DNA from: an archaeon
GTDB lineage: Archaea > Nanobdellota > Nanobdellia > Woesearchaeales > GW2011-AR9
Direction of reading: 5' to 3'
Assembly: GCA_020053615.1 (NCBI GenBank)
Contig: JAGVMW010000114.1
Location: 1 to 33,303 of the forward strand
Length of the DNA: 33,303 nucleotides
Shown here: piece after piece, positions 118 to 33,165 of the stretch
Layout: every line of letters begins with the position of its first letter
How positions within the stretch are numbered: position 1 is the stretch's first letter
The notes under the pieces: model-generated
What the model was told of the DNA's origin: nothing
The model's database searches: none
What the model saw: the letters and a program-made list of their open reading frames with translations, nothing else
Program-made: the position numbers and the translations under genes

Positions 118-286
118 GGTCGGGTCGGCAAACAGGGGTTTACAGGAATTTTACTCGGCTCGTAAAATTCCCAAATGTCAATCCAGCTCTCAAAAATTTC
201 TCAGCTCTGATTTTTCATGGGTTGCCGAAAAATCGAGGAGAAATTTTTGGAGGGATTGCCACTTCTGTAAACCCCATACGTTATAC
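118..286 (+). repeat. Junction element copy A1: 166-nt structured repeat plus core CATAC-GTTATAC (candidate structured ncRNA or attC-like recombination site)
   Basis: By eye, 118-283 matches 19227-19392 at every position except the 12 nt at 216-227. It contains nested inverted repeats: 135-145 GGGGTTTACAG with 265-275 CTGTAAACCCC; 145-154 GGAATTTTAC with 162-171 GTAAAATTCC; and a long imperfect palindrome at 179-258. It starts with CGGGTCGGCAAAC, a motif shared by the other junctions. Confidence 0.8.
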
Positions 287-315
287 GCAATTGCTAATTT
301 GCCCTTGCCGATACA

Positions 316-324
316 TTTATAAAA
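316..324 (+). promoter_or_regulatory. TATA-box-like element (TTTATAAAA) upstream of the NUDIX gene
   Basis: An A/T box lies about 25-30 nt upstream of the ATG at 348, with no Shine-Dalgarno between them. The same spacing recurs at 1034, 15686 and 19478. Confidence 0.45.
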
Positions 325-347
325 ATAAAGAACCCTCATAATTTACT

Positions 348-851
348 ATGGAACTATTACACGAGGTAAAAGACAAAGAGTGGCCCAAAGATGAATCAAC
401 TTTGGAAATCAGAGAAGCTTCCAGGGCTGTGCTTTTTGACGAGAATGGCTTAATTCCTCTTCTATTTGTTTCAAATTATAATTATCACAAACTGCCCGGC
501 GGTGGAATTGATGATGGCGAAGATAAAGCTCAAGCGTTAATTCGCGAAGTGATGGAAGAAGTTGGCAGTAAGATTGAAGTTACTGGCGAAGTTGGAAAAA
601 TTATTGAATATCGCTCGCAATTTAATTTGAAACAAATATCATATTGTTATGTCGGCAAAATAATTTCAAAAGGATTGCCGACTTTCACGGAAGAGGAATT
701 AAGCCAAAACTTTAAACTAGTTTGGTTGCCATTAAATGAAGCGATTTCCAAAGTTGAAAACGATAAGCCAACGAATTATGAGGGTTCTTTTATTCAGCAA
801 AGGGATATTGTGTTTTTAAAAAAAGTTCAGCAGATGAAACGGGCAAATTAG
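348..851 (+). CDS. NUDIX hydrolase
   Basis: A full Nudix box is present: GGGIDDGE-DKAQALI-REVMEEVGS fits Gx5Ex7REUxEExGU. Confidence 0.9.
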   Translation: MELLHEVKDKEWPKDESTLEIREASRAVLFDENGLIPLLFVSNYNYHKLPGGGIDDGEDKAQALIREVMEEVGSKIEVTGEVGKIIEYRSQFNLKQISYCYVGKIISKGLPTFTEEELSQNFKLVWLPLNEAISKVENDKPTNYEGSFIQQRDIVFLKKVQQMKRAN

Positions 852-934
852 CAACTTGCTCCGCTACGCTCCGCACCACGCTACGCTCTCGCTACACTGC
901 GTTTCGCTCGGGGCGTATAACACATACGTTATAC
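852..934 (+). repeat. Junction element J2: GC-rich block (CGCTACGCTC variants) plus core GTATAAC-ACATAC-GTTATAC
   Basis: GCTCGGGGCGTATAAC aligns with the CGGGTCG-N3-AAC motif of the other junctions. The 8-nt arms CGTATAAC (914-921) and GTTATACG (928-935) are perfectly inverted around a 6-nt spacer. Confidence 0.7.
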
Positions 935-3476: not shown

Positions 3477-3565
3477 CCTCCGCTCCTCGACTGCGGTCTG
3501 CGGTGCTCTGGGACGTTGCACTTTCGCTTCGCTCACCTCGTATAACAGCAACTGCGACGTTAAAC
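3477..3565 (+). repeat. Junction element J3: GC-rich block plus core GTATAAC...GTTAAAC
   Basis: ACGTTGCACTTTCGCTTCGCTCACCTCGTATAAC-AGCAACTGCGAC-GTTAAAC aligns with J2 and J4. It has the same orientation as all other junctions. Confidence 0.7.
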
Positions 3566-3800
3566 AAAATTTTCTTACTGCCTAGTAGGTTCACTTCGTT
3601 CCCGAAAATCCTTAAAGTTAGTGCCTTCGTTAAATCTGGTAAAACGGAAACTCAAACAATCACTTCGTGACTATTTCTAACATTGATTTAACGACTACAT
3701 TTCATTCGACCCAAATTTTTACTTACTTTAAACGACTGGGGGGAATTCCGTAACGATAACTAAACGAAAAACGAACCGAAAAGAGGGGGGGCGAGAAAAC
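3566..3800 (-). repeat. Inverted copy of the leader-type (S2) repeat, abutting the hsdR stop codon
   Basis: The reverse complement contains GTTTTCTCGCC (3790-3800), ACGGAATTCCCCCC (3738-3751), TTAAAGTAAGTAAAAA (3716-3731) and GGCAGTAAGAAAA (3570-3582). These are in the same order as 13712-13904. Confidence 0.75.
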
Positions 3801-7338: not shown

Positions 7339-8645
7339 GCTCTAACCTCAACAGGAACTCTGATTTTTCCTGATATTAATCTTGGAAGCAGGGAATCTCG
7401 GATTTGTGAGAGTATATTTTGAGTATTGATATTATCTTCACATTTAAGCATTATTTTAATGATCGAATCTTCAAATTTTGAAATAACTTCTTTACTCGGA
7501 ACTATTATGGACATATCCAATATATCGCTGGCAGATATCCTTTGGTGACTGCCACTCGTTCCCCTGGCCATCTGTACCAACTCACCTAACACGGAATGTT
7601 CTTTAAACAGAAGATATAAGTAGCAAAAAAAGGATTTATTTGGTTTGAAAACTAAAAATTCAGTTGAGCATATTGATTTTTCTTTAGCATTTATGACTGG
7701 CCAGATTCTGGGAATTCTTGGATTCAATTTAGAGAATAAGACAGACATATTAGTGACAATAAATTTGTTGCTTAATATTTCAGAACCCCTTTGATCAAAT
7801 GATGTTTTCCCGCCATCGTATGCTTCAATACTCAAGTGACTAAATATCTCTTCAGGAGAACTAACTGGATTTATTTGTTCCTTATTTTGCGTAGCAATAT
7901 TATGAATCATTCCAATTTTCCATCCTTTCGGTATCTTTCCTAACTCAGAATCAACCATTTCTCCGCCAGTAGACTTATATGGCTTTCCTTTCTCGTTTTG
8001 AAATTCAAAGTCTATAAACCATCTTTTGAAGATTGCTCGGCTTAACTCCTCCAAAACTTTATTTATCTTCTGATTAAGTTCTATTTTTAAATCTAAATCT
8101 GAGAGGATTTTAGCGATGGCAATTTGTTCAGGAAAAGAGGGGATATTGATTTCATAGCTCATAATCGAATTTTTATCTCCACGTGGCATTTTGGTTCCTT
8201 TAGAAGTCAAAACAGTAAATTCAAAAAAGTTATCTTGAGATAAATAGTAGTAAAGATATTTGTTGTTTATGCTTGATTTTTTCCTTATAACCAATACATC
8301 ATTAGAACAACCACCGGAAAATTTTGCCAACCAAAATTTCTTAAAATATGTCCTAATATTTGAGAATAAAATATCTCCTTCTCTGAATTGAGTTACCTTC
8401 CCAACTTTAGGTAATGAAGAAGCCACAGTAATCCCGCCTTTTTCAGGCAGCATATTTTCGGTTGAAATAAAATTATTCAGATTTATTTCAACAAGACTAA
8501 TCTTTTCAGTAATATATGAAGCAGTTTCTTTTAACTCTTTAACTTCCCAATCTTCAGGAATCATTCCTATTTCAGTTTGCTTCATCTTTGATGAATGCTC
8601 AGAAAACTTGTTTTCTGTTGGTTTTAATTTAGTTTGTTGTTTCAT
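7326..8645 (-). CDS. hsdS: Type I restriction enzyme specificity subunit (two target recognition domains)
   Basis: The TRD-start motif is duplicated (IPEDWEVKELKE and IPKGWKIGMIHNI). Conserved spacer helices are present (AIAKILSDLDLKIELNQK and SQIRDSLLPRLISGKI). Confidence 0.9.
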   Translation of the reverse strand: MKQQTKLKPTENKFSEHSSKMKQTEIGMIPEDWEVKELKETASYITEKISLVEINLNNFISTENMLPEKGGITVASSLPKVGKVTQFREGDILFSNIRTYFKKFWLAKFSGGCSNDVLVIRKKSSINNKYLYYYLSQDNFFEFTVLTSKGTKMPRGDKNSIMSYEINIPSFPEQIAIAKILSDLDLKIELNQKINKVLEELSRAIFKRWFIDFEFQNEKGKPYKSTGGEMVDSELGKIPKGWKIGMIHNIATQNKEQINPVSSPEEIFSHLSIEAYDGGKTSFDQRGSEILSNKFIVTNMSVLFSKLNPRIPRIWPVINAKEKSICSTEFLVFKPNKSFFCYLYLLFKEHSVLGELVQMARGTSGSHQRISASDILDMSIIVPSKEVISKFEDSIIKIMLKCEDNINTQNILSQIRDSLLPRLISGKIRVPVEVRAWHF

Positions 8646-9007: not shown

Positions 9008-10038
9008 CCTAAATCATTAAGCCTCTTTTCTATATCTTCTTTAGATGGCAGATACTTCATGAGTTCTTTAGGAAGCAATTGCGTTATTTTATATGTAGCA
9101 ACTCCAATTGGCTTTTTGGCATCGCGCAAAGCGTACTCTACTGTTGTTCTTCTCTTTTCTTTGCAGATAATAATACCTATAGAAGCATTCTCCTCATCTA
9201 ATTTAATCCGGCTATCCAATGCCGAAAGATAGAACTGCATTTTTCCGGCATATTCCGGTTTGAACTTACCCACTTTTAATTCAATAGCGACCAAACTTCT
9301 TAATTTTCGATGATATAATAACAAATCAATAAAGTATTCTTCATCATCTACTTCCATCCTATATTGGCTTCCAACGAAACAGAAATAGTTGCCCATCTCT
9401 GATAGGAAATTTTTGATTCTACTAACAAGGGCATTTTCCATTTCTTTTTCAGAGTGTTCTTCTCCCAACTCCAAAAAATCAAAAGTATACTCGTCTTTGA
9501 CCGCTAATTTAGCTTGATTTTGATATTTAACCGGAACAGTTTGGTCAAAGTTTGTTTGGTTGAGAAGATATTTTTCATAAGACTTGTTCTCAATTTGATG
9601 GATTAGGACATCTTTAGTCCAGCCAAACTTTCTGGTCATCTTAATATAAAACTCCCGCTCTAAATCATCTTTGCATTTCTCCATAATGATTATGTTTTTT
9701 ACCCAGCTTATTTCTCGCACCAATGGTGCGAGTTTTTCACTAGCTTTGTAATTTAGGTAAAAATTTCTCATTCTCCAAAGGTTTGCTGAAGAAAAACCTC
9801 CTACGCTAGGATATTCCGCTTGTAAATCTTTAGCTAAAGTTTCTACGATAGATTTACCCCAATCCTGCTTCTCAACTATTTTCTTACCAATATCCCAATA
9901 CAAACCAATGAGTTCTTTATTTACGGCTTTGAGTGCGGAATATTGGGCTTCTCTGATTCTTTGTTTTATTTCAATAAGAAAATGCCGATAATCATCTTTG
10001 GTTAGGTTTTTATTCATGATTTTACCTCCACTTCCCAA
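9004..10038 (-). CDS. DUF1016/YhcG-family PD-(D/E)xK nuclease
   Basis: The N-terminal region reads IREAQYSALKAVNKELIGLYWDIGKKIVEKQ...GFSSANLWRMRNFY. The C-terminal FIDLLLYH...VAIELKVGKF is a D...ExK nuclease core. Confidence 0.85.
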   Translation of the reverse strand: MGSGGKIMNKNLTKDDYRHFLIEIKQRIREAQYSALKAVNKELIGLYWDIGKKIVEKQDWGKSIVETLAKDLQAEYPSVGGFSSANLWRMRNFYLNYKASEKLAPLVREISWVKNIIIMEKCKDDLEREFYIKMTRKFGWTKDVLIHQIENKSYEKYLLNQTNFDQTVPVKYQNQAKLAVKDEYTFDFLELGEEHSEKEMENALVSRIKNFLSEMGNYFCFVGSQYRMEVDDEEYFIDLLLYHRKLRSLVAIELKVGKFKPEYAGKMQFYLSALDSRIKLDEENASIGIIICKEKRRTTVEYALRDAKKPIGVATYKITQLLPKELMKYLPSKEDIEKRLNDLG

Positions 10039-10041
10039 TCT

Positions 10042-10497
10042 TCAGGAATCATTCCTTTCCAGAAGCTTTTCATGGCTCTGGAATTTTTTGGCAAAATAAT
10101 CTTTTTTTGCGCAGGCTTCCCGAATTTCATCAATATGCGCTATATGTTTGTTTTCGTTAAGCCATTCATAAAATAAATATACGCTGAAAATAGTAGAAAG
10201 CAGTTCTGATACTGTGTTAAATATCCACTTATCAATGCACCACCTGAAAAAAGTCTCTAAAGTATACCTATCAATATCCTGCGGGCTTTCTTCTTCATCT
10301 ATTGCTAGATAGTCGTTAATATACAATTCTACATTGTTAAGGTGCTTTTTTATTGTTTTTTTGCTGAGGTTCTTTCGTAATAAGTACTCTTCAAATTGGT
10401 GGAGCAGTGCGATATTTTCTTTTTGAATTTTTTCGTATTTTTCCATTGTCCTACCTTCATCCCTTCTTTCCCCAGTAATATGTATTTCTCTCATCAA
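10042..10497 (-). CDS. Hypothetical protein with weak resemblance to the tyrosine-recombinase N-terminal SAM-like (core-binding) domain
   Basis: FEEYLLRKNLSKKTIKKHLNNVELYINDYL has the pattern of a core-binding domain. The true start may be the ATG at 10446 (MEKYEKIQ). Confidence 0.4.
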   Translation of the reverse strand: MMREIHITGERRDEGRTMEKYEKIQKENIALLHQFEEYLLRKNLSKKTIKKHLNNVELYINDYLAIDEEESPQDIDRYTLETFFRWCIDKWIFNTVSELLSTIFSVYLFYEWLNENKHIAHIDEIREACAKKDYFAKKFQSHEKLLERNDS

Positions 10498-10498
10498 A

Positions 10499-11989
10499 CT
10501 ACTTCCTTACACGCCCCCGATGTTTTAATCTCCCTCTCTGAATTACAACATATCCCCCGGTTTTCTTAGAGCCTACTTTTGTAATCCTTCCTTGATGTAT
10601 TAATTCTTGCAAGTAGCGCTTTAATGTTCCAAGGGGCATCTTTGTATCCTGTTCAATATCTGCCCGTTTACAGTTAGGATTTAGCTCGATAAAGTGAAAG
10701 ATTGTCTCAGATTTTATCGGCTCACTTATCGGCTCACTTATCGGCTCATTTAGTGGCTCAAATTTAGGATGAATCTTCAATCTTGTAATAAACTGGACTC
10801 TATCATCATCCGTAATAAATACTGGTGCAGGTGAACCATTATTTTGCATAGCACTTCTTATTTTCCTAAATCCGGTATTCTTTCCCTCTGTGAGCTTTAA
10901 TTCTTTTAAAAAATCACCAATTCTCCTATTTCTATACCGTTTAGAGATTACGATAGCATCATTAATATTATCTTTATTCAATGGAGGAAGAGGCCCAGGA
11001 TAACTGATTATATCAATTCGGTCAAGTTCGATTCTTACTTCAATCGGTGCGTCTATCTCATAGCTTTTATGATAAACAGCATTAACTAATGCTTCTTCAA
11101 TTGCAGTATAAGGATATGAAAAAAATCTTATTGCCTCTGCTTTAGTTGGCACTTTTATTACTTGTTCTTGTATTGCCGAATTTTTTATGTACTGTAAAGC
11201 AGAAATGATTTGATTTTGGAGGGGCCCGCTAAATCTTTCTTCTCTGAATTTATCACCGATTTTATCTTGGAATATGGTAACCTCAATCCAAGGGGTTTTA
11301 ATATATTTTTCTGGCTCATTGGAAAAAAATAATAGCCCTACGTTTTTAGGCTTCATCATTTCGTTAGGTCCTTCAATAATATTGAGGCTCTTGCAAAGCT
11401 CTTCAAAACTTAATGCTTTTGCACTTAATCCTGAATGAATATTCTGCAAATATGATTTAATCAACTCTACATTCAAGTCATTTAGCGATGCTTTCTGGTT
11501 TATTTGATCATCATAAGGGATCTGGTTAGACATTCCAATTAATTCTTTTTCTTCTTCTTTATTTGCAACAACTGTTGATGACGAATGACGAATATAGTAT
11601 TTATATTCTGATGCAACCCCAAACGATTTTGGTGCTTTGTACGGTCTTGCAGGGCCACCGGGGCAATATAAAATTATGAGGTTTTTAGAATTATATTTTG
11701 TGGGCTCAACAATGGGATAATAAGGCCATTGAATTTTGTTAGATAATTCTACTATTTTTTTCAAGATAAAATCTATCTGATTTTCGGCAATTCCAATTAT
11801 TCTTTTTTTATCGTCAACACCGATTATAATGTAGCCCCCTCCCCAATTATTAAAATCATTTGCAAAAGCACACATAGTATGAACTATTGATTCAGGATTA
11901 AACCCTTCTTTTAATTCAATTCTTTCTGATTCAATTAAATGTTCTTCAATTAATCGTTTGGCGTTTATTGGCAGCAGCATTTTATTCAT
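10499..11989 (-). CDS. AlbA_2 (Schlafen-like) + HATPase_c_4 + C-terminal wHTH protein, often annotated as a RecG-like putative DNA-binding regulator
   Basis: The AlbA_2 region reads ESERIELKEGFN...CAFANDFNNWGGGYIIIGVDD. The ATPase-like region reads EEALVNAVYHKSYE...RNRRIGDFLKELKLTEGKNTGFRKI. The C-terminal wHTH reads LGTLKRYLQELIHQGRITKVG. Confidence 0.8.
   Translation of the reverse strand: MNKMLLPINAKRLIEEHLIESERIELKEGFNPESIVHTMCAFANDFNNWGGGYIIIGVDDKKRIIGIAENQIDFILKKIVELSNKIQWPYYPIVEPTKYNSKNLIILYCPGGPARPYKAPKSFGVASEYKYYIRHSSSTVVANKEEEKELIGMSNQIPYDDQINQKASLNDLNVELIKSYLQNIHSGLSAKALSFEELCKSLNIIEGPNEMMKPKNVGLLFFSNEPEKYIKTPWIEVTIFQDKIGDKFREERFSGPLQNQIISALQYIKNSAIQEQVIKVPTKAEAIRFFSYPYTAIEEALVNAVYHKSYEIDAPIEVRIELDRIDIISYPGPLPPLNKDNINDAIVISKRYRNRRIGDFLKELKLTEGKNTGFRKIRSAMQNNGSPAPVFITDDDRVQFITRLKIHPKFEPLNEPISEPISEPIKSETIFHFIELNPNCKRADIEQDTKMPLGTLKRYLQELIHQGRITKVGSKKTGGYVVIQRGRLKHRGRVRK
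10714..10761. repeat. In-frame 12-bp tandem repeat: two perfect and two degenerate units of TTATCGGCTCAC
   Basis: Units lie at 10714-10725, 10726-10737, 10738-10749 and 10750-10761. They encode the EPISEPISEPI linker of the AlbA_2 protein. Confidence 0.85.
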
Positions 11990-11997
11990 TCCTTTTT

Positions 11998-13521
11998 TTA
12001 TATCTTAAACCCAATCCCTTCCAGATTCTTCTTTATTTCAACATCCAACTTCTGCCCTTCTTTCATCTGTTCAGATAATTCAGCAGTTAATCGTTTCATC
12101 TTCTCTTCAAATGCTTCGTCGTCTTCTACTTCTTCTTGGATTCCAACATATCTTCCAGGAGTCAGGATAAAATTATTCTTCTCAACCTCTTCCAATTTAG
12201 CGGATTTGCAAAGGCCAGTAACATCTTCATATTTGAGCTTGTTTTCTCCTCTCCATGCGTGATAAGTGGAAGATATTTTCTTAACATCCTCATCAGTTAG
12301 TTCTCTATGTCTTCGGTCAATCATCACACCCATATTTCTGGCATCAATAAACAAGATTTGCCCTCTTCTGTCCCTAAACGAATGGTCTTTTTTATCTCGT
12401 GTAACAAACCACAAGCAGGCAGGAATTCCAGTATTGTAGAATAACTGGGCAGGTAATGCTACCATGCAATCAACAATATCAGAAGTAATCATATCCTTCC
12501 TTATTTCGCCCTCATTAGAAGTATTTGATGACATTGAGCCATTTGCCAGAACAAAGCCAGCTACGCCAGTAGGATTCAAATGATGAATAAAATGCTGAAC
12601 CCAGGCAAAATTGGCATTATTTTTTGGAGGCACTCCAAACTTCCATCTTACATCTTCCTGCAATAATTCGCCATTCCAATCTGAATCATTAAACGGAGGA
12701 TTGGCAAGAATAAAATCTGCTTTCAAATCTTTATGCTGGTCATCATGGAAAGCATCGCCCCATTTGATATTTGAGTCAATCCCTCTGATAGCCATATTCA
12801 TCTTACAAAGCTTCCATGTTGTCTGGTTGCTTTCTTGTCCATAAACCGAAATGTCTTTTATTTTTCCGCCATGAGCCTCTACAAACTTTTCGGATTGAAC
12901 AAACATTCCACCTGAACCACAGCAGGGATCAAATATTCTTCCTTTGTATGGCTCTAACATCTCAGTTAATAGTTTTACAATAGAACGAGGAGTATAGAAC
13001 TGCCCGCCTTTCTTTCCTTCAGCAGAGGCAAATTCACCTAAAAAATATTCATAGACTCTTCCAAGAATGTCTTTACTACGATTCTCTTTATCACCAAGTC
13101 CAATCGTTCCGATTAAATCAATCAATTCCCCTAATCTTTGCTTGTTCAATCCTGGACGAGCATAATTCTTTGGCAAAACTCCTTTAAGTGAGGGATTGTC
13201 TCTTTCAATAATATCCATAGCTTCATCAAGAAATTTTCCAACTTCTGGCTTTTTTGCATTGGCTTGAAGATGCTCCCATCTTGCTACTTTTGGGACAAAG
13301 AAAATTCTCCGCGAAACATACTCATCAACATCTTCTGGATCTGAATCTTTCTCTTTTTTCAGTTTTTCATAAACTTCAGTAAAAGCATCAGAAATATACT
13401 TTAAGAAAATCAAACCTAAAACAACGTGCTTATATTCAGCAGCATCCATATTGCTTCTTAGCTTATCAGCAGAAGACCATAATTTTTGTTCAAACCCTAA
13501 ATTAGCACCGTTATTTGACAT
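11998..13521 (-). CDS. hsdM: Type I R-M N6-adenine DNA methyltransferase subunit
   Basis: It has motif [12 protein letters not shown], motif [10 protein letters not shown] and an HsdM N-terminal domain ([33 protein letters not shown]). Confidence 0.95.
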
Positions 13522-13663
13522 TTTCTCGCCCCCTCTTATCTAACTCTGCTTCCATGCACTTCTCAAACTGACGAGATACTATCCAGCCTTCTTTCTTGCA
13601 TATCTCTCTATACTTATCGTAAAGTTCAGAGTTTACTTTCAATGTGATGTTTTTTGTTTTCAT
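13511..13663 (-). CDS. Ribbon-helix-helix (CopG/Arc-like) small protein RHH-1, translationally coupled to hsdM
   Basis: [41 protein letters not shown] has a beta-strand plus two-helix pattern. The ATG at 13663 is preceded by GGTGGGGTGA. The track ORF (to 13693) begins at a GTG and is probably over-extended. A paralog lies at 32630-32779. Confidence 0.7.
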
Positions 13664-13711
13664 TTCACCCCACCTGATAAGAAATACTTGCACATACTTA
13701 TAAATATTACT

Positions 13712-13904
13712 GTTTTCTCGCCACTAACTACTGAATACTGAAACTCCCACCCTACCCACCCAAAGCGTCTTCTTTTTGTAAAAAGAAGCAAAAACAAAAC
13801 GGAATTCCCCCCTACGAACGACTAAACTAATGTCTGCTTCGCAGTAATTGATGTTAAAGTAAGTAAAAACTACGGCACCTATCTGATTTTCGGCAGTAAG
13901 AAAA
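13712..13904 (+). repeat. Leader-type (S2) repeat upstream of RHH-1/hsdM; the inverted partner of 3566-3800
   Basis: It contains GTTTTCTCGCC (13712-13722), ACGGAATTCCCCCC (13799-13812), TTAAAGTAAGTAAAAA (13854-13869) and GGCAGTAAGAAAA (13892-13904). In addition, 13799-13853 is near-identical to 32898-32953. Confidence 0.8.
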
Positions 13905-13934: not shown

Positions 13935-13984
13935 GCTCGACCCCGTTGCACTCTCGCTACGCTCGGGTCGGCTAACAGCGGAAG
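13935..13984 (+). repeat. Junction element J4, left half (GC-rich block plus CGGGTCGGCTAACAGCGGAAG), interrupted by the IS
   Basis: CCGTTGCACTCTCGCTACGCTCGGGTCGGCTAACAG aligns with J1, J3 and J9. The expected CATAY-GTTAWAY half is found only on the far side of the IS. Confidence 0.7.
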
Positions 13985-15541
13985 CCGTCCCGCAATCCCC
14001 TCCCAAAACACAATTTAAATCTTCATTCTTCTCAGAAAAAAATAAAATCCCTCATTTAACACTCCACTGCTCCTTTCATCCTCCAAATCTTCATTAAATT
14101 ATGAGCAATACAGGCCAAATTAAACTCAATCTTCACCTTTTCCTTGCCTCGAAGCAGGAATTCCCTGAATCCCAAGTTCTGCTTGATATTCCCATACACC
14201 GGCTCGACCGTAATTTTCCGCAAAGAATACACTTTCTTTGCTTCATCTGTTTTCATCTTGTCTCTCATCCTCAGCCGTTCACGGAAGTAGAACGGCACAT
14301 CTTTTTTCTTCCCTAATTTATCATTATAATAACTCAATATCTTCATGCCGTTTTTCCTCGTGTACTGAAACTTGAAGTAAAATCGATGTTTTCCGACGAT
14401 TAATTCATCTCTCTTGGCATCATACTCATACTGGTCGTGATTCAAACTTTGCTCCTTGCCGTCAAACTCTTGTGCTTGTGCACGAGAAGGCACATATAAA
14501 TCAATCTTATTTTCCTCCGCAAATTTAATGTTCCCCGCGTCACTATAACCGCAGTCAACTCCCACCTTTGTGTCATCTTTCAAAGTTATATTCTCTTTAA
14601 CATTCTTCATCTGCGGGATGAACTGGTGAACATCATGCTTGTCCTGGCAGATCTCATTGGCAATAATTATCTGATTCCTGTCGACAGTTAGCTGAGCATT
14701 GTAGCTCAGCTCGGAATGCCTTTTCTTGGTCTGCATGGCTCTGGCTTCAGGATCAGAAAGGGAGACTTTCTTCAACCCATACTTTTCCAGTTCATTTTTA
14801 GCTTGTTCAATATTCTTTTTGACCTTCTTCTTATCTTCTGCCTCATGGAATTCCCTAACTATTTTCTTAAGGTCTCTTTTGTCAATTCCAGTAAGCCCTT
14901 CTTCCCTATCGTCGAAGAGTTGGTCTTCCAGTTCATCCAGAGCTATATCTTCTTTGATCATCTTTTCGATAGCTTGGTCCAGTTTGTCCAACCCTTTCTT
15001 ATCCATATATCTCTTGCTACCAGCGTAGGCCTTTAAGGTTGTTCCATCGATGCTGATAAAGCTGAGGTCAGTAAGGTTGTGCCTGGCGGCGATTTCCACC
15101 GTTTTTTTGAATGCATCTTTGACAAATTCAGGATGTTCCATCCTGAAGCGGTTTATCGTCCTGAAATCTGGATGGACTTTCTCTGCCAGATACATGAAAA
15201 TAAAGTTTTCTCTGGTTGCCCTGGCCAATCTTCTGGAAGATCTGGTTTTGCAAAGCATCCCGTAAACCAAGATTTTCATGATAATTCTCGGGTGATAGGC
15301 AGGATGCCCTGCGCCTTCGTAGATCAAATCAAAGTCGGAGAAATCTAACTCATCAACATAGTTTTCCACTAGGAAACAGATGTGGTCTTTAGGAATGATT
15401 TCTGTTATCGACGGTGGCAGAAGCCAATTCTGGTCTTGGTAAGAATTTATGTATGCCATATTGCACCTCATTTTATTGATGATAAGATTATAACTTGTCG
15501 ACGGGAGAACTAGTATTTATATTTTGTGAATTATGGGACGG
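13985..15541 (-). mobile_element. IS element (IS1182/IS5-like) inserted into a junction element
   Basis: It encodes a single DDE transposase. The ends are imperfectly inverted: CCGTCCCGCAATCC...AAAACACAATTTAAAT at 13985 onward, and the reverse complement of 15500-15541 reads CCGTCCCATAATTC..AAAATATAAATAC. The boundaries could instead be 13992/15534 if CCGTCCC/GGGACGG belongs to the target hairpin. No clear target-site duplication was seen. Confidence 0.6.
14056..15471 (-). CDS. DDE transposase, IS1182/IS5 superfamily
   Basis: The N-terminal DUF772-type region reads HPAYHPRIIMKILVYGMLCKTRSSRRLARATRENFIFMYLA. The C-terminal region reads VEPVYGNIKQNLGFREFLLRGKEKVKIEFNLACIAHNLMKI. Confidence 0.85.
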   Translation of the reverse strand: MRCNMAYINSYQDQNWLLPPSITEIIPKDHICFLVENYVDELDFSDFDLIYEGAGHPAYHPRIIMKILVYGMLCKTRSSRRLARATRENFIFMYLAEKVHPDFRTINRFRMEHPEFVKDAFKKTVEIAARHNLTDLSFISIDGTTLKAYAGSKRYMDKKGLDKLDQAIEKMIKEDIALDELEDQLFDDREEGLTGIDKRDLKKIVREFHEAEDKKKVKKNIEQAKNELEKYGLKKVSLSDPEARAMQTKKRHSELSYNAQLTVDRNQIIIANEICQDKHDVHQFIPQMKNVKENITLKDDTKVGVDCGYSDAGNIKFAEENKIDLYVPSRAQAQEFDGKEQSLNHDQYEYDAKRDELIVGKHRFYFKFQYTRKNGMKILSYYNDKLGKKKDVPFYFRERLRMRDKMKTDEAKKVYSLRKITVEPVYGNIKQNLGFREFLLRGKEKVKIEFNLACIAHNLMKIWRMKGAVEC

Positions 15542-15565
15542 TCTGAGGGGTCCCATATGTTATAT
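15542..15565 (+). repeat. Junction element J4, right half (TCTGAGGGGTCCCATAT-GTTATAT)
   Basis: The core CATATGTTATAT at 15554-15565 completes the junction whose left half ends at 13984. Confidence 0.65.
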
Positions 15566-18950: not shown

Positions 18951-19226
18951 TCTAATAGTTATTAAATAGACATTTCTTTAAATACTTTGTCCAAACCTGT
19001 CCAGTGACCAGTGGCTCTCTAAATGGAAACAACGGCTCTTAAATCCCCCTAACTTTTGTCTCTCTTCTCTCATATTCAAATAATCGAACTTTTGACGAAC
19101 TACGGTGGCACCTAAAGTCTCGGGAATGTTAAAACTTCTTCGGTTTAATGTCCTTCGGACTTAAACCTCGACCACGCTGCGCTTTCCCTACGATTTTTAT
19201 ATTCCCTTCGGTCATTAAAAATCTTC

Positions 19227-19395
19227 GGTCGGGTCGGCAAACAGGGGTTTACAGGAATTTTACTCGGCTCGTAAAATTCCCAAATGTCAATCCAGCTCTC
19301 AAAAATTTCTCAGCTCTGATTTTTGTGGGCTACCTCAAAAATCGAGGAGAAATTTTTGGAGGGATTGCCACTTCTGTAAACCCCATACGTTAAAC
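19227..19395 (+). repeat. Junction element copy A2: 166-nt structured repeat plus core CATAC-GTTAAAC
   Basis: It matches 118-283 except at 19325-19336. The closing base pair of the apical hairpin is swapped relative to copy A1 (G19325/C19336 versus C216/G227). A TTTTTATATT box at 19193-19202 lies about 25-30 nt upstream. Confidence 0.8.
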
Positions 19396-19399
19396 TCAA

Positions 19400-19434
19400 T
19401 AAAATTTCTGTTAGACTAAACTTAAGGGGTGCTT
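19400..19434. repeat. Left arm of the inverted repeat flanking the GIY-YIG/Mrr/Zn-ribbon block
   Basis: TAAAATTTCTGTTAG (19400-19414) and GGGGTGCTT (19426-19434) are exact reverse complements of 20913-20927 and 20900-20908. Confidence 0.85.
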
Positions 19435-19477
19435 ATTTTCTAATGGTTTGTAAGATAGCTTTGTAAAGGTCGAAAGA

Positions 19478-19487
19478 TTTTTATAGG
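19478..19487 (+). promoter_or_regulatory. TATA-box-like element (TTTTTATAGG)
   Basis: It lies about 25-30 nt upstream of the ATG at 19510. Confidence 0.4.
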
Positions 19488-19509
19488 TAGTTAAGAGTTA
19501 ATATATAAA

Positions 19510-20052
19510 ATGGAAATTAAACAAATATTAGATAAAATTGAATCAAATAAAAGCATACAACAATTTCCAAAAACCTCTGGAATTTATGTAATGTATGCAA
19601 AAAATAACATTATTTTTGATTTTATTACAATTAATAAAGGAGAAATAATATATATTGGCAAAAGTGAAAGTTCATTATCTGATAGAAAAACAAAACAACA
19701 TTTTAGTTCTGAAAGTACTGGTCGGTCAACTGTGAGAAGAAGTTTAGGTGCTATCCTAAAAAAAGAATTTGATATAAAATGTTTTTTAAGAGGTAAAGGA
19801 AAATCTAAAAATGATTCTAATTGTTATATATTTGATAAGGAAAGTGAAATCAGATTAACTAATTGGATGAATGAAAATATTTCCATGTCTTTTTTTGTCA
19901 CAAATAATCCAGAAGAAATAGAAGTTAGGTTAATTGCAAAATATAATCCTATTCTAAATCTAAAAGAAGCAGAACATAATTTTATAACACATATCAAAGA
20001 TTTAAGAACTAAATGTAAAGATGAAGCTGAACAAAATGGTGTCTTGAAATGA
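19510..20052 (+). CDS. GIY-YIG nuclease-domain protein
   Basis: SGIYVMYAKNN...EIIYIGKSESSLSDR fits GIY-x(n)-YIG, followed by a conserved Arg region (RSTVRRSLG). Confidence 0.6.
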   Translation: MEIKQILDKIESNKSIQQFPKTSGIYVMYAKNNIIFDFITINKGEIIYIGKSESSLSDRKTKQHFSSESTGRSTVRRSLGAILKKEFDIKCFLRGKGKSKNDSNCYIFDKESEIRLTNWMNENISMSFFVTNNPEEIEVRLIAKYNPILNLKEAEHNFITHIKDLRTKCKDEAEQNGVLK

Positions 20053-20723
20053 ATCCTAAAGAATATGAAGAATATATTGGCGAATATTTCAAAAATAAAG
20101 GGTATGATATTAAAGTAACTTCTTTTACAAATGATTATGGTGTTGATTGTTTTGCTTCAAAAGGAAAAGAAAAGATTGCAGTACAAGTAAAAATGTATGG
20201 TGAGGGTATTAGACCTGTAAATAGAAAAATGATGATGGAATTATATGGTGCAATGCACTATTTTGACTGCAATAAAGCAAAACTTGTAACAAATGGCAGA
20301 ATATTAGATGATGCCAAAGAAGTTGCAGATAAGTTAGGTATTGAAATATTATATGTCGAAGCAGTTGAAAATCATAATTCTAAAACGAAAATAGATGAAA
20401 CTTCTTTTGAATTTATCTGGGAAAGATATATCTTGCCATTAAAAGGAAAAACATTAACTAGAACTAATGGAGATACAAATATAATAAAAGATGTGGATTG
20501 GAGCGGAATAAAAAGAATAACTTCAAATGGCAACACTGCAAAAATAGATATTGAGATTTTCAAACAAGTTATTAACCACTTAAGGAAAAATGGAGAAATT
20601 TCTCGCAAAGAAATCAATGATGATTATTCAGGTAGAGCTTCATCTGGAATATGCTTAATATTATCACAAGTTCCTTTTATTCAATATCACAATAGTCCTT
20701 CAAAATTAATTTGGAGAAAATAA
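20049..20723 (+). CDS. Mrr-cat type restriction endonuclease domain protein with an unknown C-terminal domain
   Basis: YEEYIGEYFKNKGYDIKVTSFTNDYGVDCFASKGKEKIAVQVKMY fits the D...(Q/E)xK PD-(D/E)xK core of Mrr_cat. The start overlaps the upstream stop as ATGA. Confidence 0.65.
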   Translation: MNPKEYEEYIGEYFKNKGYDIKVTSFTNDYGVDCFASKGKEKIAVQVKMYGEGIRPVNRKMMMELYGAMHYFDCNKAKLVTNGRILDDAKEVADKLGIEILYVEAVENHNSKTKIDETSFEFIWERYILPLKGKTLTRTNGDTNIIKDVDWSGIKRITSNGNTAKIDIEIFKQVINHLRKNGEISRKEINDDYSGRASSGICLILSQVPFIQYHNSPSKLIWRK

Positions 20724-20724
20724 A

Positions 20725-20901
20725 ATGGTTCAAATTCCTTGTCAAAATTGCGGAAAGATGTATCCTGAAGAATGGTCTTGGTATAGCTGTAATAAATGTG
20801 ATTATAGAATTTGTCAATCTTGCATTTCCAAACATAAAGGTAAATATGGAAGCGGTTTCAAATGTAGTCAATGTACATTTGGACAAATGAAACGAAAATA
20901 A
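20725..20901 (+). CDS. 58-aa double zinc-ribbon protein (four CxxC pairs); not in the supplied ORF track
   Basis: My manual translation gives MVQIPCQNCGKMYPEEWSWYSCNKCDYRICQSCISKHKGKYGSGFKCSQCTFGQMKRK. The ATG lies 1 nt after the upstream stop. Confidence 0.5.
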   Translation: MVQIPCQNCGKMYPEEWSWYSCNKCDYRICQSCISKHKGKYGSGFKCSQCTFGQMKRK

Positions 20902-20927
20902 GCACCCCACGACTAACAGAAATTTTA
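20900..20927. repeat. Right arm of the inverted repeat flanking the GIY-YIG/Mrr/Zn-ribbon block
   Basis: AAGCACCCC (20900-20908) and CTAACAGAAATTTTA (20913-20927) pair with the left arm. The arm overlaps the Zn-ribbon stop codon. Confidence 0.85.
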
Positions 20928-20950
20928 CTTTGAATTTTTGCCTTCGACAT

Positions 20951-21000
20951 CGTTGCACTAAAATTCAATCCTAACGGAGAGTTTAACAGCGATGTTATAC
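20951..21000 (+). repeat. Junction element J7 (CGTTGCACT ... TTTAACAGCGAT-GTTATAC)
   Basis: CGTTGCACT (20951-20959) matches the S1 block of J3 and J4. AACAGCG plus GTTATAC (20985-21000) match the core. It has the same orientation as the other junctions. Confidence 0.6.
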
Positions 21001-21175: not shown

Positions 21176-21238
21176 GGGGGAGTTCTAAACTTTCTGACAA
21201 CTAACTTTGACGAGGGGGGAGTTCCGTGACGACGAGAA
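21176..21238 (+). repeat. S2-type block (GGGGGAGTTCTAAAC ... GGGGGGAGTTCCGTGACGACGAGAA) next to the 3' end of the large minus-strand block
   Basis: It resembles 3738-3800 (GGGGGGAATTCCGTAACGA...GCGAGAAAAC). It is also the inverse, with one mismatch, of ACGGAATTCCCCC at 32898-32910. Confidence 0.55.
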
Positions 21239-31900: not shown

Positions 31901-32672
31901 GTTTATATAAATCCCAATATGCCTGCATAAATTTTCTATCTTTATTCAGCCATTCTTTCTTAGCTATAAAATAAATGAACATAATTCTATTCATAAATTG
32001 TAATGTAAATTCATGGGCTATTTTCGGGTCTACCTTCTGTTTTTTGAGTTCTTTTCTCACCACTAAAAATAGTCTTTGATAATCCTCAAAAAATTTCTTA
32101 GTAACTTTCTGAACATCAAACGCCTCTTTCCATAACCGCCAGAGTTCTCGCCATGTTTTCTTTTGGTCTTCCAGAAATATATTGCAAATTATCTCAATAT
32201 CTGTATAATAAAGCTCATCTTTTTTCAATATTAATGTGGTTGTTTTAAGTTTATGTTTTCCTACCTCCTGCTTTTCGTAATCTGGAAACACAATATGTAT
32301 CTCTTTATAATCGATTGTAATAATTAAGAGACATCGCGTGTACATTTCAGCGAATTTGTTTGCGATATATCGCATAAGAGGCTTACTAAGAGAGTTAGTT
32401 TCAATTAAGAAGACATTGAGTTTATCATAACTCATAACTGTGTAAATTGTTTTAATTTTGTCTCGTTCTTCACTGGCAAAAGAAAATTCTTTTATCTTTT
32501 TAACATAAGATGAATCAAAAATTGCTTCTTTTGGATAATTTAGACTCTTAAACAAACCATATATATCCTCTGAATTCTTTATGAAAGAGATATAATCTTT
32601 AACTTTCTTTCGGAGATCTGAATTATTATTCACTTTTCCCGCCCCCTCTTCTCTAACTCTGCTTCCATGCAT
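28935..32672 (-). CDS. Large N6-adenine DNA methyltransferase, Eco57I/type IIG- or PglX-like
   Basis: Motif I is IVDPACGSGAFLVGML and motif IV is VIGNPPYV, with a coiled-coil insert between them and a long C-terminal region. I could not identify a clear N-terminal nuclease motif. The more likely start is the GTG at 32633, in a GTGA overlap with the RHH-2 stop, rather than the ATG at 32672. Confidence 0.8.
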   Translation of the reverse strand: MHGSRVREEGAGKVNNNSDLRKKVKDYISFIKNSEDIYGLFKSLNYPKEAIFDSSYVKKIKEFSFASEERDKIKTIYTVMSYDKLNVFLIETNSLSKPLMRYIANKFAEMYTRCLLIITIDYKEIHIVFPDYEKQEVGKHKLKTTTLILKKDELYYTDIEIICNIFLEDQKKTWRELWRLWKEAFDVQKVTKKFFEDYQRLFLVVRKELKKQKVDPKIAHEFTLQFMNRIMFIYFIAKKEWLNKDRKFMQAYWDLYKRISKYGNNEFYDKWLKPLFFEAFNNKSSYHPELPEEVNKILSNSPYLNGGLFTKKIGLDDLKINISDNLFKEIFDFFESYNFTIKEDSVLDVEVSVDPQMIGYVYESLANITEDVYENEEDLRGDWGIFYTAKVEVDFMCRRSLVEYLGKNLEIPKEELYEFVFDEDKEKIEKKFNQRKCWGKIEEALDNLSIVDPACGSGAFLVGMLNVLVELYKIVFKHIGSSLSDFQLKYRIIQRSLYGVDVMPWAIHASELRLWLQLIVETQFKDEELRKHPLLPNLNMNLRVGDSLVQEIGGISFNVRSNNLKPHLKKKLEELKNEKRRYFENSPSAKYKTPEEFKVQEVRLFEEILNERIESLETDIQVLTHSSSKKEKQTGLFGASVNIDAENIKKEKKNLIELENRIKECADEIEKLKKVKELLKDPAKKPFVWDIDFAEVFADEGGFDIVIGNPPYVRQEKIAPPNKLKEEVTLEDRRGYKEKLIKSVQNRFPVVIDWDKKSDLYVYFYFHGLSLLNSGGVFCFITSNSWLDVGYGKGLQEFLLRYSHVIGIYDNQAKRSFEHADVNTIIALLGAPVIGKQKSLFEYGAEYNGNGKATYSGFSQTARFVMFKKPFEEVVNAANLVKIEKAEKILKTNEFRVYPINQEDLLEDGWEYPEGYENGRFGKGSYEGNKWGSKFLRSPDIVFSILSKKDVGVLKELYGKVDTGLYSGINDFFYLNEEQVKKWKIETDYLIPLIKSPQDVKCISLNKYINKKFVFICNESKNSLKSKDHNNALKYIEWGERQETKEKGKVKAGIPWPEVPTVVNRKPGWWSISNVEFTNCFMLYGYNDRFIHPYSEKKALSDRRFHMIKLKKEVNPKYFSLLLNSTFTALFIEIYGRSNLGQGALDLATMDANKIPMVSLQKLNFSKYNINKFFTREVKSIFEELGIDPTKPIREQEPKPLPDRAELDNIIFDELGLTKEERKEVYWAVCELVQQRLNKATSLKK

Positions 32673-32779
32673 TTCTCAAACTGACGAGAAACTATCCAGC
32701 CTTCTTTTTTGCATAACTCCCTATAGGTATCATACAATTTTGAATTAACTTTCAAAGTGATATTCTTACTCTCTTCCAT
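32630..32779 (-). CDS. Ribbon-helix-helix small protein RHH-2, a paralog of 13511-13663; not in the supplied ORF track
   Basis: My manual translation gives [49 protein letters not shown]. In my alignment 40 of 44 core residues are identical to RHH-1. The gene is preceded by GAGGGAATGA. Confidence 0.7.
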   Translation of the reverse strand: MEESKNITLKVNSKLYDTYRELCKKEGWIVSRQFEKCMEAELEKRGREK

Positions 32780-32849
32780 TATCATTCCCTCTAACTAGAT
32801 TAATAATAAATAACTGCACATACTTATAAAGATTACTATGCTGAAACTC

Positions 32850-32953: not shown

Positions 32954-33060
32954 GATGATTCATTAAAAAACTACGGTAGCCCCTAACTCGCTCAGAAACA
33001 AAGTTTCTGGCGTGCAAGAAAAATCGCTGTTTTTCTTCGCATCTCAGCGCTGAAAAAACT

Positions 33061-33165
33061 CTGCGCACTGCGGTGCTTGCCCCGCTGCGCTCTCACTCCA
33101 TTTTTATGTCCTGCGGGACTAAAAATTCCGTTCGGGTCGAGAAACAGCGCACGCATATGTTATAT
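33061..33165 (+). repeat. Junction element J9 (GC-rich block, CGGGTCGAGAAACAGCG, core CATAT-GTTATAT)
   Basis: GCGCTCTCACTCCATTTTTATGTCCTGCGGGACTAAAAATTCCGTTCGGGTCGAG aligns with 19176-19236. The core lies at 33154-33165. Confidence 0.7.

Follow-up and report, generated by a model that had tools for sequence, protein, structure and literature searches.

Organization of the Locus

The DNA analyzed here (the window, that is, the whole 33-kb stretch) comes from a DPANN archaeon belonging to Woesearchaeota/Nanoarchaeia and has a G+C content of 34%. It is a defense island that is cut into cassettes by at least eight sites, all of which lie on the plus strand (Table 1). The cargo comprises a NUDIX hydrolase, AbiE-like genes together with GrpB, a complete type I restriction-modification (R-M) operon, an IS transposase, an MNT-HEPN pair, a methyltransferase, a Bro-N protein, GIY-YIG and Mrr nucleases, and a large operon encoding a type IIG-like methylase and a PLD/Snf2 helicase.

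Table 1. Positions of sites, site components and selected cassettes in the window.
Feature	Position	Strand	Description
Site A, long, copy 1	118-286	+	Three-way junction; candidate cassette recombination site
Site A, boxes		+	R'' GGCAAAC 127-133; spacer ATAC 276-279; R' GTTATAC 280-286
Site A, helices		+	P1 135-145/265-275; P2 145-171; P3 175-262
Site A, P3 tip	216-227	+	Closing pair and apical loop C-ATGGGTTGCC-G; sole block unlike copy 2
Cassette 1	287-905	+	NUDIX hydrolase gene 348-851
Site B, minimal	906-934	+	Without junction; closes the NUDIX cassette
Site B, parts		+	R'' GTATAAC 915-921; 6-nt spacer ACATAC; R' GTTATAC 928-934
Site F, short	3540-3565	+	GTATAAC-AGCAACTGCGAC-GTTAAAC; closes the AbiE-like and GrpB cassette
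Site C, 5' motif	13963-13978	+	TCGGGTCGGCTAACAG; R'' GGCTAAC 13970-13976
Site C', 3' motif	15554-15565	+	CATATGTTATAT; R' 15559-15565; downstream of the IS transposase gene
Site D, long, copy 2	19227-19395	+	R'' 19236-19242; R' GTTAAAC 19389-19395
Site D, loop block	19325-19336	+	G-TGGGCTACCT-C
Cassette downstream of copy 2	19396-20980	+	GIY-YIG nuclease 19510-20052; Mrr-type nuclease 20049-20723; small ORF
Site G, short	20981-21000	+	GTTTAAC-AGCGAT-GTTATAC; closes the GIY-YIG and Mrr cassette
Site E, short	33132-33165	+	TCGGGTCGAGAAACAG-CGCACG-CATATGTTATAT; after the large methylase/helicase defense operon

Each of the 18 sites catalogued in the window and in related loci contains AAC (in box R'') and GTT (in box R') in inverted orientation. 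What lies between the two boxes is either a short stretch of 6-16 nt, as in the short sites of the window and of other loci, or a three-way junction, as in sites A and D and their variants. The 3' motif CATAYGTTAWAY occurs seven times in the window against 1.5 expected, and its five exact matches, all on the plus strand, are assigned sites; the 5' motif TCGGGTCGGCAAACAG, which forms the head of the element opposite its tail, occurs four times against 0.05 expected. Sites F and G were read directly from the sequence by eye. The 3' half of site C is not recognizable nearby, where an IS transposase gene comes next, and the MNT-HEPN cassette starts at site C'. The transposase gene (14056-15471, minus strand), which is of the IS5/IS1182 DDE type, is thus located between an orphan 5' half-site and a 3' box, and approximately 75 nt following the half-site are shared with another locus (L042:5549), blurring the exact boundary of the IS.

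Structure of the Long Sites

A previous sequence-only reading of the window described positions 118-283 and 19227-19392 as identical except for one block (216-227 versus 19325-19336), and both alignment and a repeat search agree with this description. The flanks of the two copies are unrelated on either side and the same element is present in at least nine unrelated contigs, which rules out assembly duplication, an explanation that the reading itself had named as fatal to its claims. The three-way junction that it had drawn was also recovered in both copies, whose RNA minimum-free-energy folds match the drawn architecture: P1 (135-144/266-275), P2 (145-154/162-171, 7-nt loop), and P3 (175-262), a long stem with bulges. 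The RNA fold energies are -62.7 kcal/mol for copy 1 and -65.6 kcal/mol for copy 2 (z = -6.6 and -7.2, respectively; none of 200 shuffles was as stable), and the reverse strand gives an equally good RNA fold. When DNA parameters were used, the energies were -43.0 kcal/mol for the minus strand (z = -9.1) and -39.3 kcal/mol for the plus strand (z = -7.7).

At the tip of P3, the closing pair is indeed swapped (C216-G227 in copy 1, G-C in copy 2), but the accompanying statement that the 10-nt loop changes completely was mistaken, as a 1-base shift aligns the two copies and leaves a 9-nt core that differs at two positions. In register, the loops read (CA)TGGGTTGCC(G) in copy 1 and (G)TGGGCTACC(TC) in copy 2, and the differences between the tips consist of a 1-nt register shift, two substitutions, and the swap of the closing pair.

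Two further features of these sites were observed. P3 is composed of repeats of one bulged-helix module, in which YCC-AG-CTC-T-S is paired with S-GAG-GGR (window 179-258; L104:11889-12028; L120:1640-1765; here and below, L followed by a number denotes a related locus). One variant carries this module on the other arm, and L120 has three of them in an element lacking P2 that directly follows the long site. In addition, a sequence-conserved module of approximately 125 nt (AAAACTACGGCAGCCCCTACCTTCTCGGCGCTGAAAAAACTCT...CCCCGCTGCGCTCTCCC...) precedes the AAC box in most sites, such as L120:1355-1480, L032:7217-7351, and window 32997-33131 and 19094-19228. It exists in at least two mosaic versions, and the version differs between the two window copies, which is why they become identical exactly at 118/19227. 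Neither a consensus structure (consensus energy -0.4 kcal/mol) nor covariation was detected in this upstream module.

Relatives, Covariation and Conserved Loops

Relatives of the element are confined to metagenome-assembled genomes (MAGs) of Woesearchaeota/Nanoarchaeia and to similar AT-rich metagenome contigs. A scan for the 5' motif in one genome per species revealed real relatives only in three such MAGs (L019, L032, and L042), and a scan of metagenomes added L081, L089, L104, L116, L119, L120, L135, L136, L139, and L143. The long copies (n = 10) are 85-100% identical to one another. A covariance model built from close copies then yielded five divergent full-length variants (L104:11889-12028, L104:10758-10893, L116:496-673, L143:1038-1141, and L119:9848-10022).

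Covariation was analyzed in sixteen related sites, representing 14 distinct sequences, by means of a model-guided alignment. P1 is present in six different versions, each of which is fully complementary, P2 in at least four, and P3 varies in both length and sequence. In the alignment, which was fitted to the structure, 40 of the 54 pairs show compensatory change on both sides among the 14 distinct sequences, and 96.5% of the 681 cells are paired, compared with 81% in shuffled controls and 31-61% when the partners were slid. Cells with double changes number 77 versus 14.8 in shuffles, a level reached by none of 500 shuffles; only three one-sided changes stand against these 77 two-sided ones, and G-U pairs account for 3 of the 681 cells. 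Since complete helix swaps are not producible by alignment alone, the covariation stands despite the way in which the alignment was made. Selection on a folded structure, as proposed in the sequence-only reading, is therefore upheld by the collected relatives and their covariation, and on this comparative evidence the folded three-way junction is under selection. The covariation record of the family, with its six different P1 helices, is unusually clean.

The idea of a hypervariable loop that determines specificity in an otherwise invariant element did not survive the same comparison: the loops of P2 and P3 are among the most conserved parts, and it is the stems that differ. Of the 14 copies that are readable at this position, 13 have the P3 loop core TGGGYTRCC, variants with unrelated stems among them; the exception is L143:1038. 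Conservation across variants with different stems extends to the P3 loop GTGGGTTGCCTC (core TGGGTTGCC), the P2 loop CTCGGCTCG, the junction strands J2/3 (CCAAAT) and J3/1 (ACTTC), and the GGAA/TTCC base of P2. Independent metagenome contigs contain both tip alleles of the window: L135 (L135:2656) has the copy-1 type, C-A(T/G)GGGTTGCC-G, and eight others, including L143 and L116, have the copy-2 type, G-TGGG(C/T/A)TGCCT-C. Because the loops are conserved while the stems vary, a specificity loop is unsupported, and the attractive notion of a programmable, guide-like loop has to be corrected as wrong. In L032, the tip helix of P3 is flipped from ATTTTT/AAAAAT to AAAAAT/ATTTTT with the loop unchanged. 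Inversion of a loop segment was considered and rejected, as the two loops are not reverse complements and the stem flip in L032 keeps the orientation of the loop.

Cassette Boundaries and Array Behavior

In integrons, the crossover takes place at G|TT, which leaves the tail of a cassette's R' box at the start of that cassette and its R'' box at the end, hence the two ends are complementary. In the present family, similarity among the ten long copies stops exactly after CATACGTT, beyond which different genes are found, and the bases following GTT are complementary to the R'' box of the downstream site of the same cassette. The cassette between sites A and B starts with GTTATACGC and ends with GCGTATAAC, that between B and F starts with GTTATACGA and ends with TCGTATAAC, and that between D and G starts with GTTAAACTC and ends with GAGTTTAAC (9/9 complement). 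Outside the window, the corresponding pairs are GTTAGTTTC ... GAAACTAAC in L116, GTTAGGCGT ... ACGCCTAAC in L119, and GTTTGCC ... GGCAAAC in both L143 and L032. Over 12 cassettes, the start matches its own downstream R'' box at 52 of 84 positions, compared with a mean of 32.2 after permutation (p = 2.5e-5); the same score for adjacent tails is 38/84. Such complementarity is absent from the two largest cassettes (F to C and G to E), for which a search of the plus strand found no matching R'' boxes. Some cassettes are very large and carry operons of 10-12 kb. The orientation of sites is uniform in all seven multi-site contigs, namely the window, L104 (3/3), and L116, L143, L119, L032, and L042 (2/2 each).

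Comparison with Integrons

A complete integron possesses an adjacent intI gene, whose product has an IntI-specific insertion, an attI site, and a Pc promoter. Neither IntI nor attI was found in the 33-kb window or in approximately 130 kb of related loci; as the contigs are incomplete, an intI gene may lie elsewhere. The IntI insertion is missing from the tyrosine recombinases encoded nearby, in L032 and L120 only, which are XerA according to NCBIfam NF040815 (200.5 and 220.7 bits); against an integron-integrase model they yielded only two split pieces below the cut-off. As it stands, no integrase accompanies this cluster of sites. Archaeal integrons and attC clusters, including those of Nanoarchaeota/Woesearchaeales, have been reported by Ghaly et al. 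2022 (PMC9668308), their cargo being toxin-antitoxin and restriction genes.

The resemblance to attC sites is extensive. Shared features include the inverted terminal AAC/GTT boxes, a hairpin whose structure, not its stem sequence, is conserved, a branched terminus, which recalls the "complex branched" terminal structure of large attC sites such as the Vibrio cholerae repeats (VCR) (PMC2727003), co-oriented cassette arrays, the break in similarity at G|TT, a cassette start that complements its own R'' box, and an R''-L'' spacing shorter than the L'-R' spacing. Toxin-antitoxin and restriction/defense cargo and the high identity of sites within a genome are likewise found in integrons.

On the other hand, the sites deviate from attC in several respects. 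The extended consensus is mostly absent, RYYYAAC being found in 3 and GTTRRRY in 5 of the 18 sites; the R' box of copy 2 (GTTAAAC) fits the latter and that of copy 1 (GTTATAC) is one base off. An attC site has an unpaired central spacer and two to three extrahelical bases on the R''-L'' arm (PMC2727003), whereas P1 is perfectly paired in all variants of the element, more bases are unpaired between R box and P1 on the R'-L' than on the R''-L'' side (4-6 nt versus 1-2 nt), opposite to canonical attC, and the 5'-arm bulges (AG and T) occur only in P3, beyond the junction. The terminal structure of attC has no sequence requirement, whereas the loops and junction strands of the element are conserved in sequence. 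The distance from R'' to R' (160 nt) exceeds the usual range of attC, and the conserved, unstructured upstream module of approximately 125 nt is foreign to it. In contrast to integrons, the family includes many companion sites with too little sequence between the boxes for folding (6 nt in site B), and cassettes can be very large.

Probable Folding as DNA and Alternative Explanations

The sequence-only reading had offered RNA or single-stranded DNA as the molecule that folds, and the latter fits better. Structured RNAs usually tolerate many G-U pairs; here the covariation is almost purely Watson-Crick, which favors folded DNA over RNA, and such evolution is expected if one DNA strand, or both, has to fold. 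A structured non-coding RNA, either a stand-alone small RNA of about 165 nt or a cis-acting element at cassette boundaries, is accordingly an unlikely explanation in our assessment. It would be transcribed from near G118, with the P2 and P3 loops binding protein or RNA, and the AAC/GTT boxes would mean that an RNA gene lies within a recombination site. The strong, covarying three-way junction is what such an RNA would display, and conserved loops and junction strands on variable stems are typical of functional RNAs; moreover, an A/T-rich TATA-like box (TTTTTATATT) lies approximately 25 nt upstream of the start of identity at G19227, similar A/T boxes are found at other copies, and several copies are followed by T-runs. 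Against it stand not only the near absence of G-U pairs (3/681) and of one-sided changes, but also the start/end complementarity of cassettes, which is explained by DNA recombination and not by a role as RNA, and the fact that the junction is optional within a larger unit, as sites with the same ends lack it. The last observation implies that the junction is a module within a larger DNA site. There is also no Rfam match: a search of the window with Rfam 15 gave nothing at the gathering threshold and only sub-threshold miRNA-like hairpins at a relaxed E-value, and a tRNA/tmRNA scan of it found none. Among specific RNA classes, retron ncRNA, IS110 bridge RNA, and OMEGA/TnpB guide RNA were rejected because no reverse transcriptase, IS110, or TnpB gene lies beside either copy and the loops are conserved, and a riboswitch or leader because the downstream genes differ in every copy and a separate TATA-like box precedes the ATG of the NUDIX gene by approximately 25 nt. 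With regard to the strand, mismatches read on the plus strand are C.A in eight cases and G.T in three, and since C.A on the plus strand is G.T on the minus strand, the bottom strand is weakly favored, as in integrons. This mismatch bias, the Watson-Crick-only covariation, and the more stable predicted DNA fold of the minus strand are hints that the folded bottom strand may be used in recombination. On the bottom strand of L032, the R boxes (GGCAAAC/GTTTGCC) pair beside P1 across a 4-nt/1-nt internal loop.

A second alternative keeps recombination and dispenses with folding, in that the boxes would be a double-stranded Xer/dif-type site used by integrating elements (IMEX-like or dif-module-like), with the housekeeping recombinase XerA acting on the AAC/GTT arms and the three-way junction being an accessory or passenger insert. 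Site B, which has a near-perfect core of 10-bp inverted arms (GGCGTATAAC/GTTATACGAC) around a 6-nt spacer, suits this proposal well, and its left arm GGGGCGTATAA fits the XerC-arm consensus of bacterial dif. Right flanks of the sites show the pattern TTNNNNNNAAT, a xerA gene lies 2.7 kb from the end of the array in both L032 and L120, and inverted arms would also yield complementary cassette starts and ends. Nevertheless, we regard this possibility as quite unlikely. The arms are 146 nt apart in the 166-nt elements and 13-16 nt apart in other short sites, so that a duplex core site is impossible unless the DNA folds; the dif site of archaeal XerA consists of two inverted arms of approximately 11 bp with a duplex spacer of 6-8 bp (PMC2958812), a geometry that was found only in site B (915-934) and not in the 166-nt elements. 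In addition, P1 covaries and always abuts the boxes, that is, the junction co-evolves with the site. The sites are present in multiple copies and are not unique. The linkage to xerA was not reproduced at three other Woesearchaeota xerA loci (L151-L153), where two covariance models detected no site within 10 kb, and is thus a lead only. Two systems nevertheless connect Xer enzymes with arrangements of this kind. The attP(+) site of the phage CTX-phi (work attributed to Val and colleagues, 2005) is reportedly a folded single-stranded hairpin that the host XerCD recombines at dif; as in the present element, folding of a single strand brings together two inverted arms that lie far apart and thus creates the substrate, tandem arrays arise through repeated use, and a host enzyme of the Xer family could suffice in place of a dedicated integrase. 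In contrast, that system is bacterial and brings a phage genome to a single chromosomal dif target, and here multiple sites are borne on cassettes. The pdif modules of Acinetobacter plasmids and IMEX are small modules, often carrying toxin-antitoxin or resistance genes, that are bounded by Xer-type sites. Small gene modules with similar bounding sites are found here too, but pdif is a 28-bp duplex in alternating orientation, whereas the present sites are co-oriented and the long ones need to fold. Finally, a selfish dispersed repeat (MITE- or REP-like) accumulating in intergenic DNA would account for multi-copy, palindromic, intergenic elements that are nearly identical within a genome; it is very improbable in view of the missing terminal inverted repeats and target-site duplications, the uniform orientation (about 11 independent choices agree, roughly 1 in 2000 by chance), the sharp AAC/GTT boundaries with cassette-specific complementarity, and the covariation of stems around conserved loops. 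Databases of plasmids, phages, and viral contigs contained no real match, and two viral 18-mer matches were dismissed as GC-rich chance hits without a covariance-model match.

Proposed Function

Considering these features together, the 166-nt element is probably an attC-like single-stranded DNA recombination site with a branched terminal structure, located at the 3' end of a mobile defense-gene cassette. In such a site, the DNA, probably the bottom (minus) strand, would fold when single-stranded, R'' would pair with R', and P1 would serve as a second duplex, giving a substrate of the size required by a recombinase. A tyrosine recombinase would cut at G|TT; with this cut, the TTNNNN tail belongs to the next cassette and an excised circle regains an R' box that matches its own R''. 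P2 and P3 would constitute the branched "variable terminal structure" known from large attC sites, and the sequence conservation of loops and junction strands suggests that they are probably bound by protein as well, either the recombinase or an accessory factor. Homogenization of sites within the array, as in chromosomal integrons, may explain why the two window copies are nearly identical, and their sole difference would represent two naturally occurring alleles of the P3 tip.

A bolder proposal is that DPANN archaea (Woesearchaeota/Nanoarchaeia) possess an integrase-less cassette system distinct from classical integrons, in which the host XerA, or another recombinase or accessory protein, recognizes three-way-junction single-stranded DNA sites by the sequence of their conserved loops CTCGGCTCG and TGGGTTGCC, and which moves whole defense operons of up to approximately 12 kb between genomes. 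We consider this version rather doubtful. If the attC-like reading is correct, ultra-small symbiotic archaea would assemble and exchange anti-virus defense islands by way of folded-DNA sites, and the integron principle would extend to a family whose sites would probably receive low scores from standard attC models, as they are longer, have another spacer geometry and conserved loops, and lack a nearby IntI. The complementarity of cassette starts and ends is an internal test built into the family, and the sites are defined well enough for synthesis and for the recombination assays already used on archaeal attC.

Additional Features of the Cassettes and Related Loci

Several other features were noted in the cassettes of the window and in related loci. 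Two homologous small ORFs of approximately 50 aa (13511-13693 and 32630-32785, both on the minus strand) head the two large minus-strand defense operons, that is, the type I R-M operon and the methylase/helicase system, and a conserved promoter-like stretch is located upstream of each (13677-13711 and 32803-32837). Judging from their sequences, the products look like ribbon-helix-helix regulators, and they may be shared controller proteins of the two operons. The arms of an imperfect inverted repeat of approximately 230 bp (3570-3800 versus 13712-13904) lie on either side of the 10-kb type I R-M module and are made up of four collinear inverted blocks, including GGGGGGAATTCCG, a motif that also flanks the second large operon (approximately 21215-21235 and 32900). 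This repeat could delimit a part of the cassette that is able to invert or to move separately.

Within the R-M operon, an exact 27-nt direct repeat (8542-8568 and 10030-10056) brackets a gene for a YhcG-type PD-(D/E)XK nuclease and a 121-aa ORF, and the adjoining 151-aa ORF (10042-10497) contains only an integrase SAM-like N-terminal domain; the region looks like an insertion or duplication at the start of hsdS. The same operon includes a gene with a Schlafen/AlbA_2 domain, in which a 12-nt tandem repeat (TTATCGGCTCAC, approximately 3.9 copies) occupies positions 10714-10760.

Beyond the window, an AsnC-type regulator gene, xerA, and an archaeal Nre repair gene (FEN1 in L032) form a conserved neighborhood in Woesearchaeota (L032:2344-5708, L120:2025-6346, and L153:8486-12645), and in L032 and L120 the array abuts the 3' end of the AsnC gene, in opposite orientations. 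In addition, a segment between two co-oriented sites in L119 (L119:1463-10022; also L042:8-4026) shows perfect 9-nt complementarity between its start and end. On comparison with the near-identical L042, through which its gene content was read, this segment seems to carry genes for an LD-carboxypeptidase, a HIT protein, and two class II aminoacyl-tRNA-synthetase-like proteins, which, if right, would make it a "cassette" of housekeeping-type genes.
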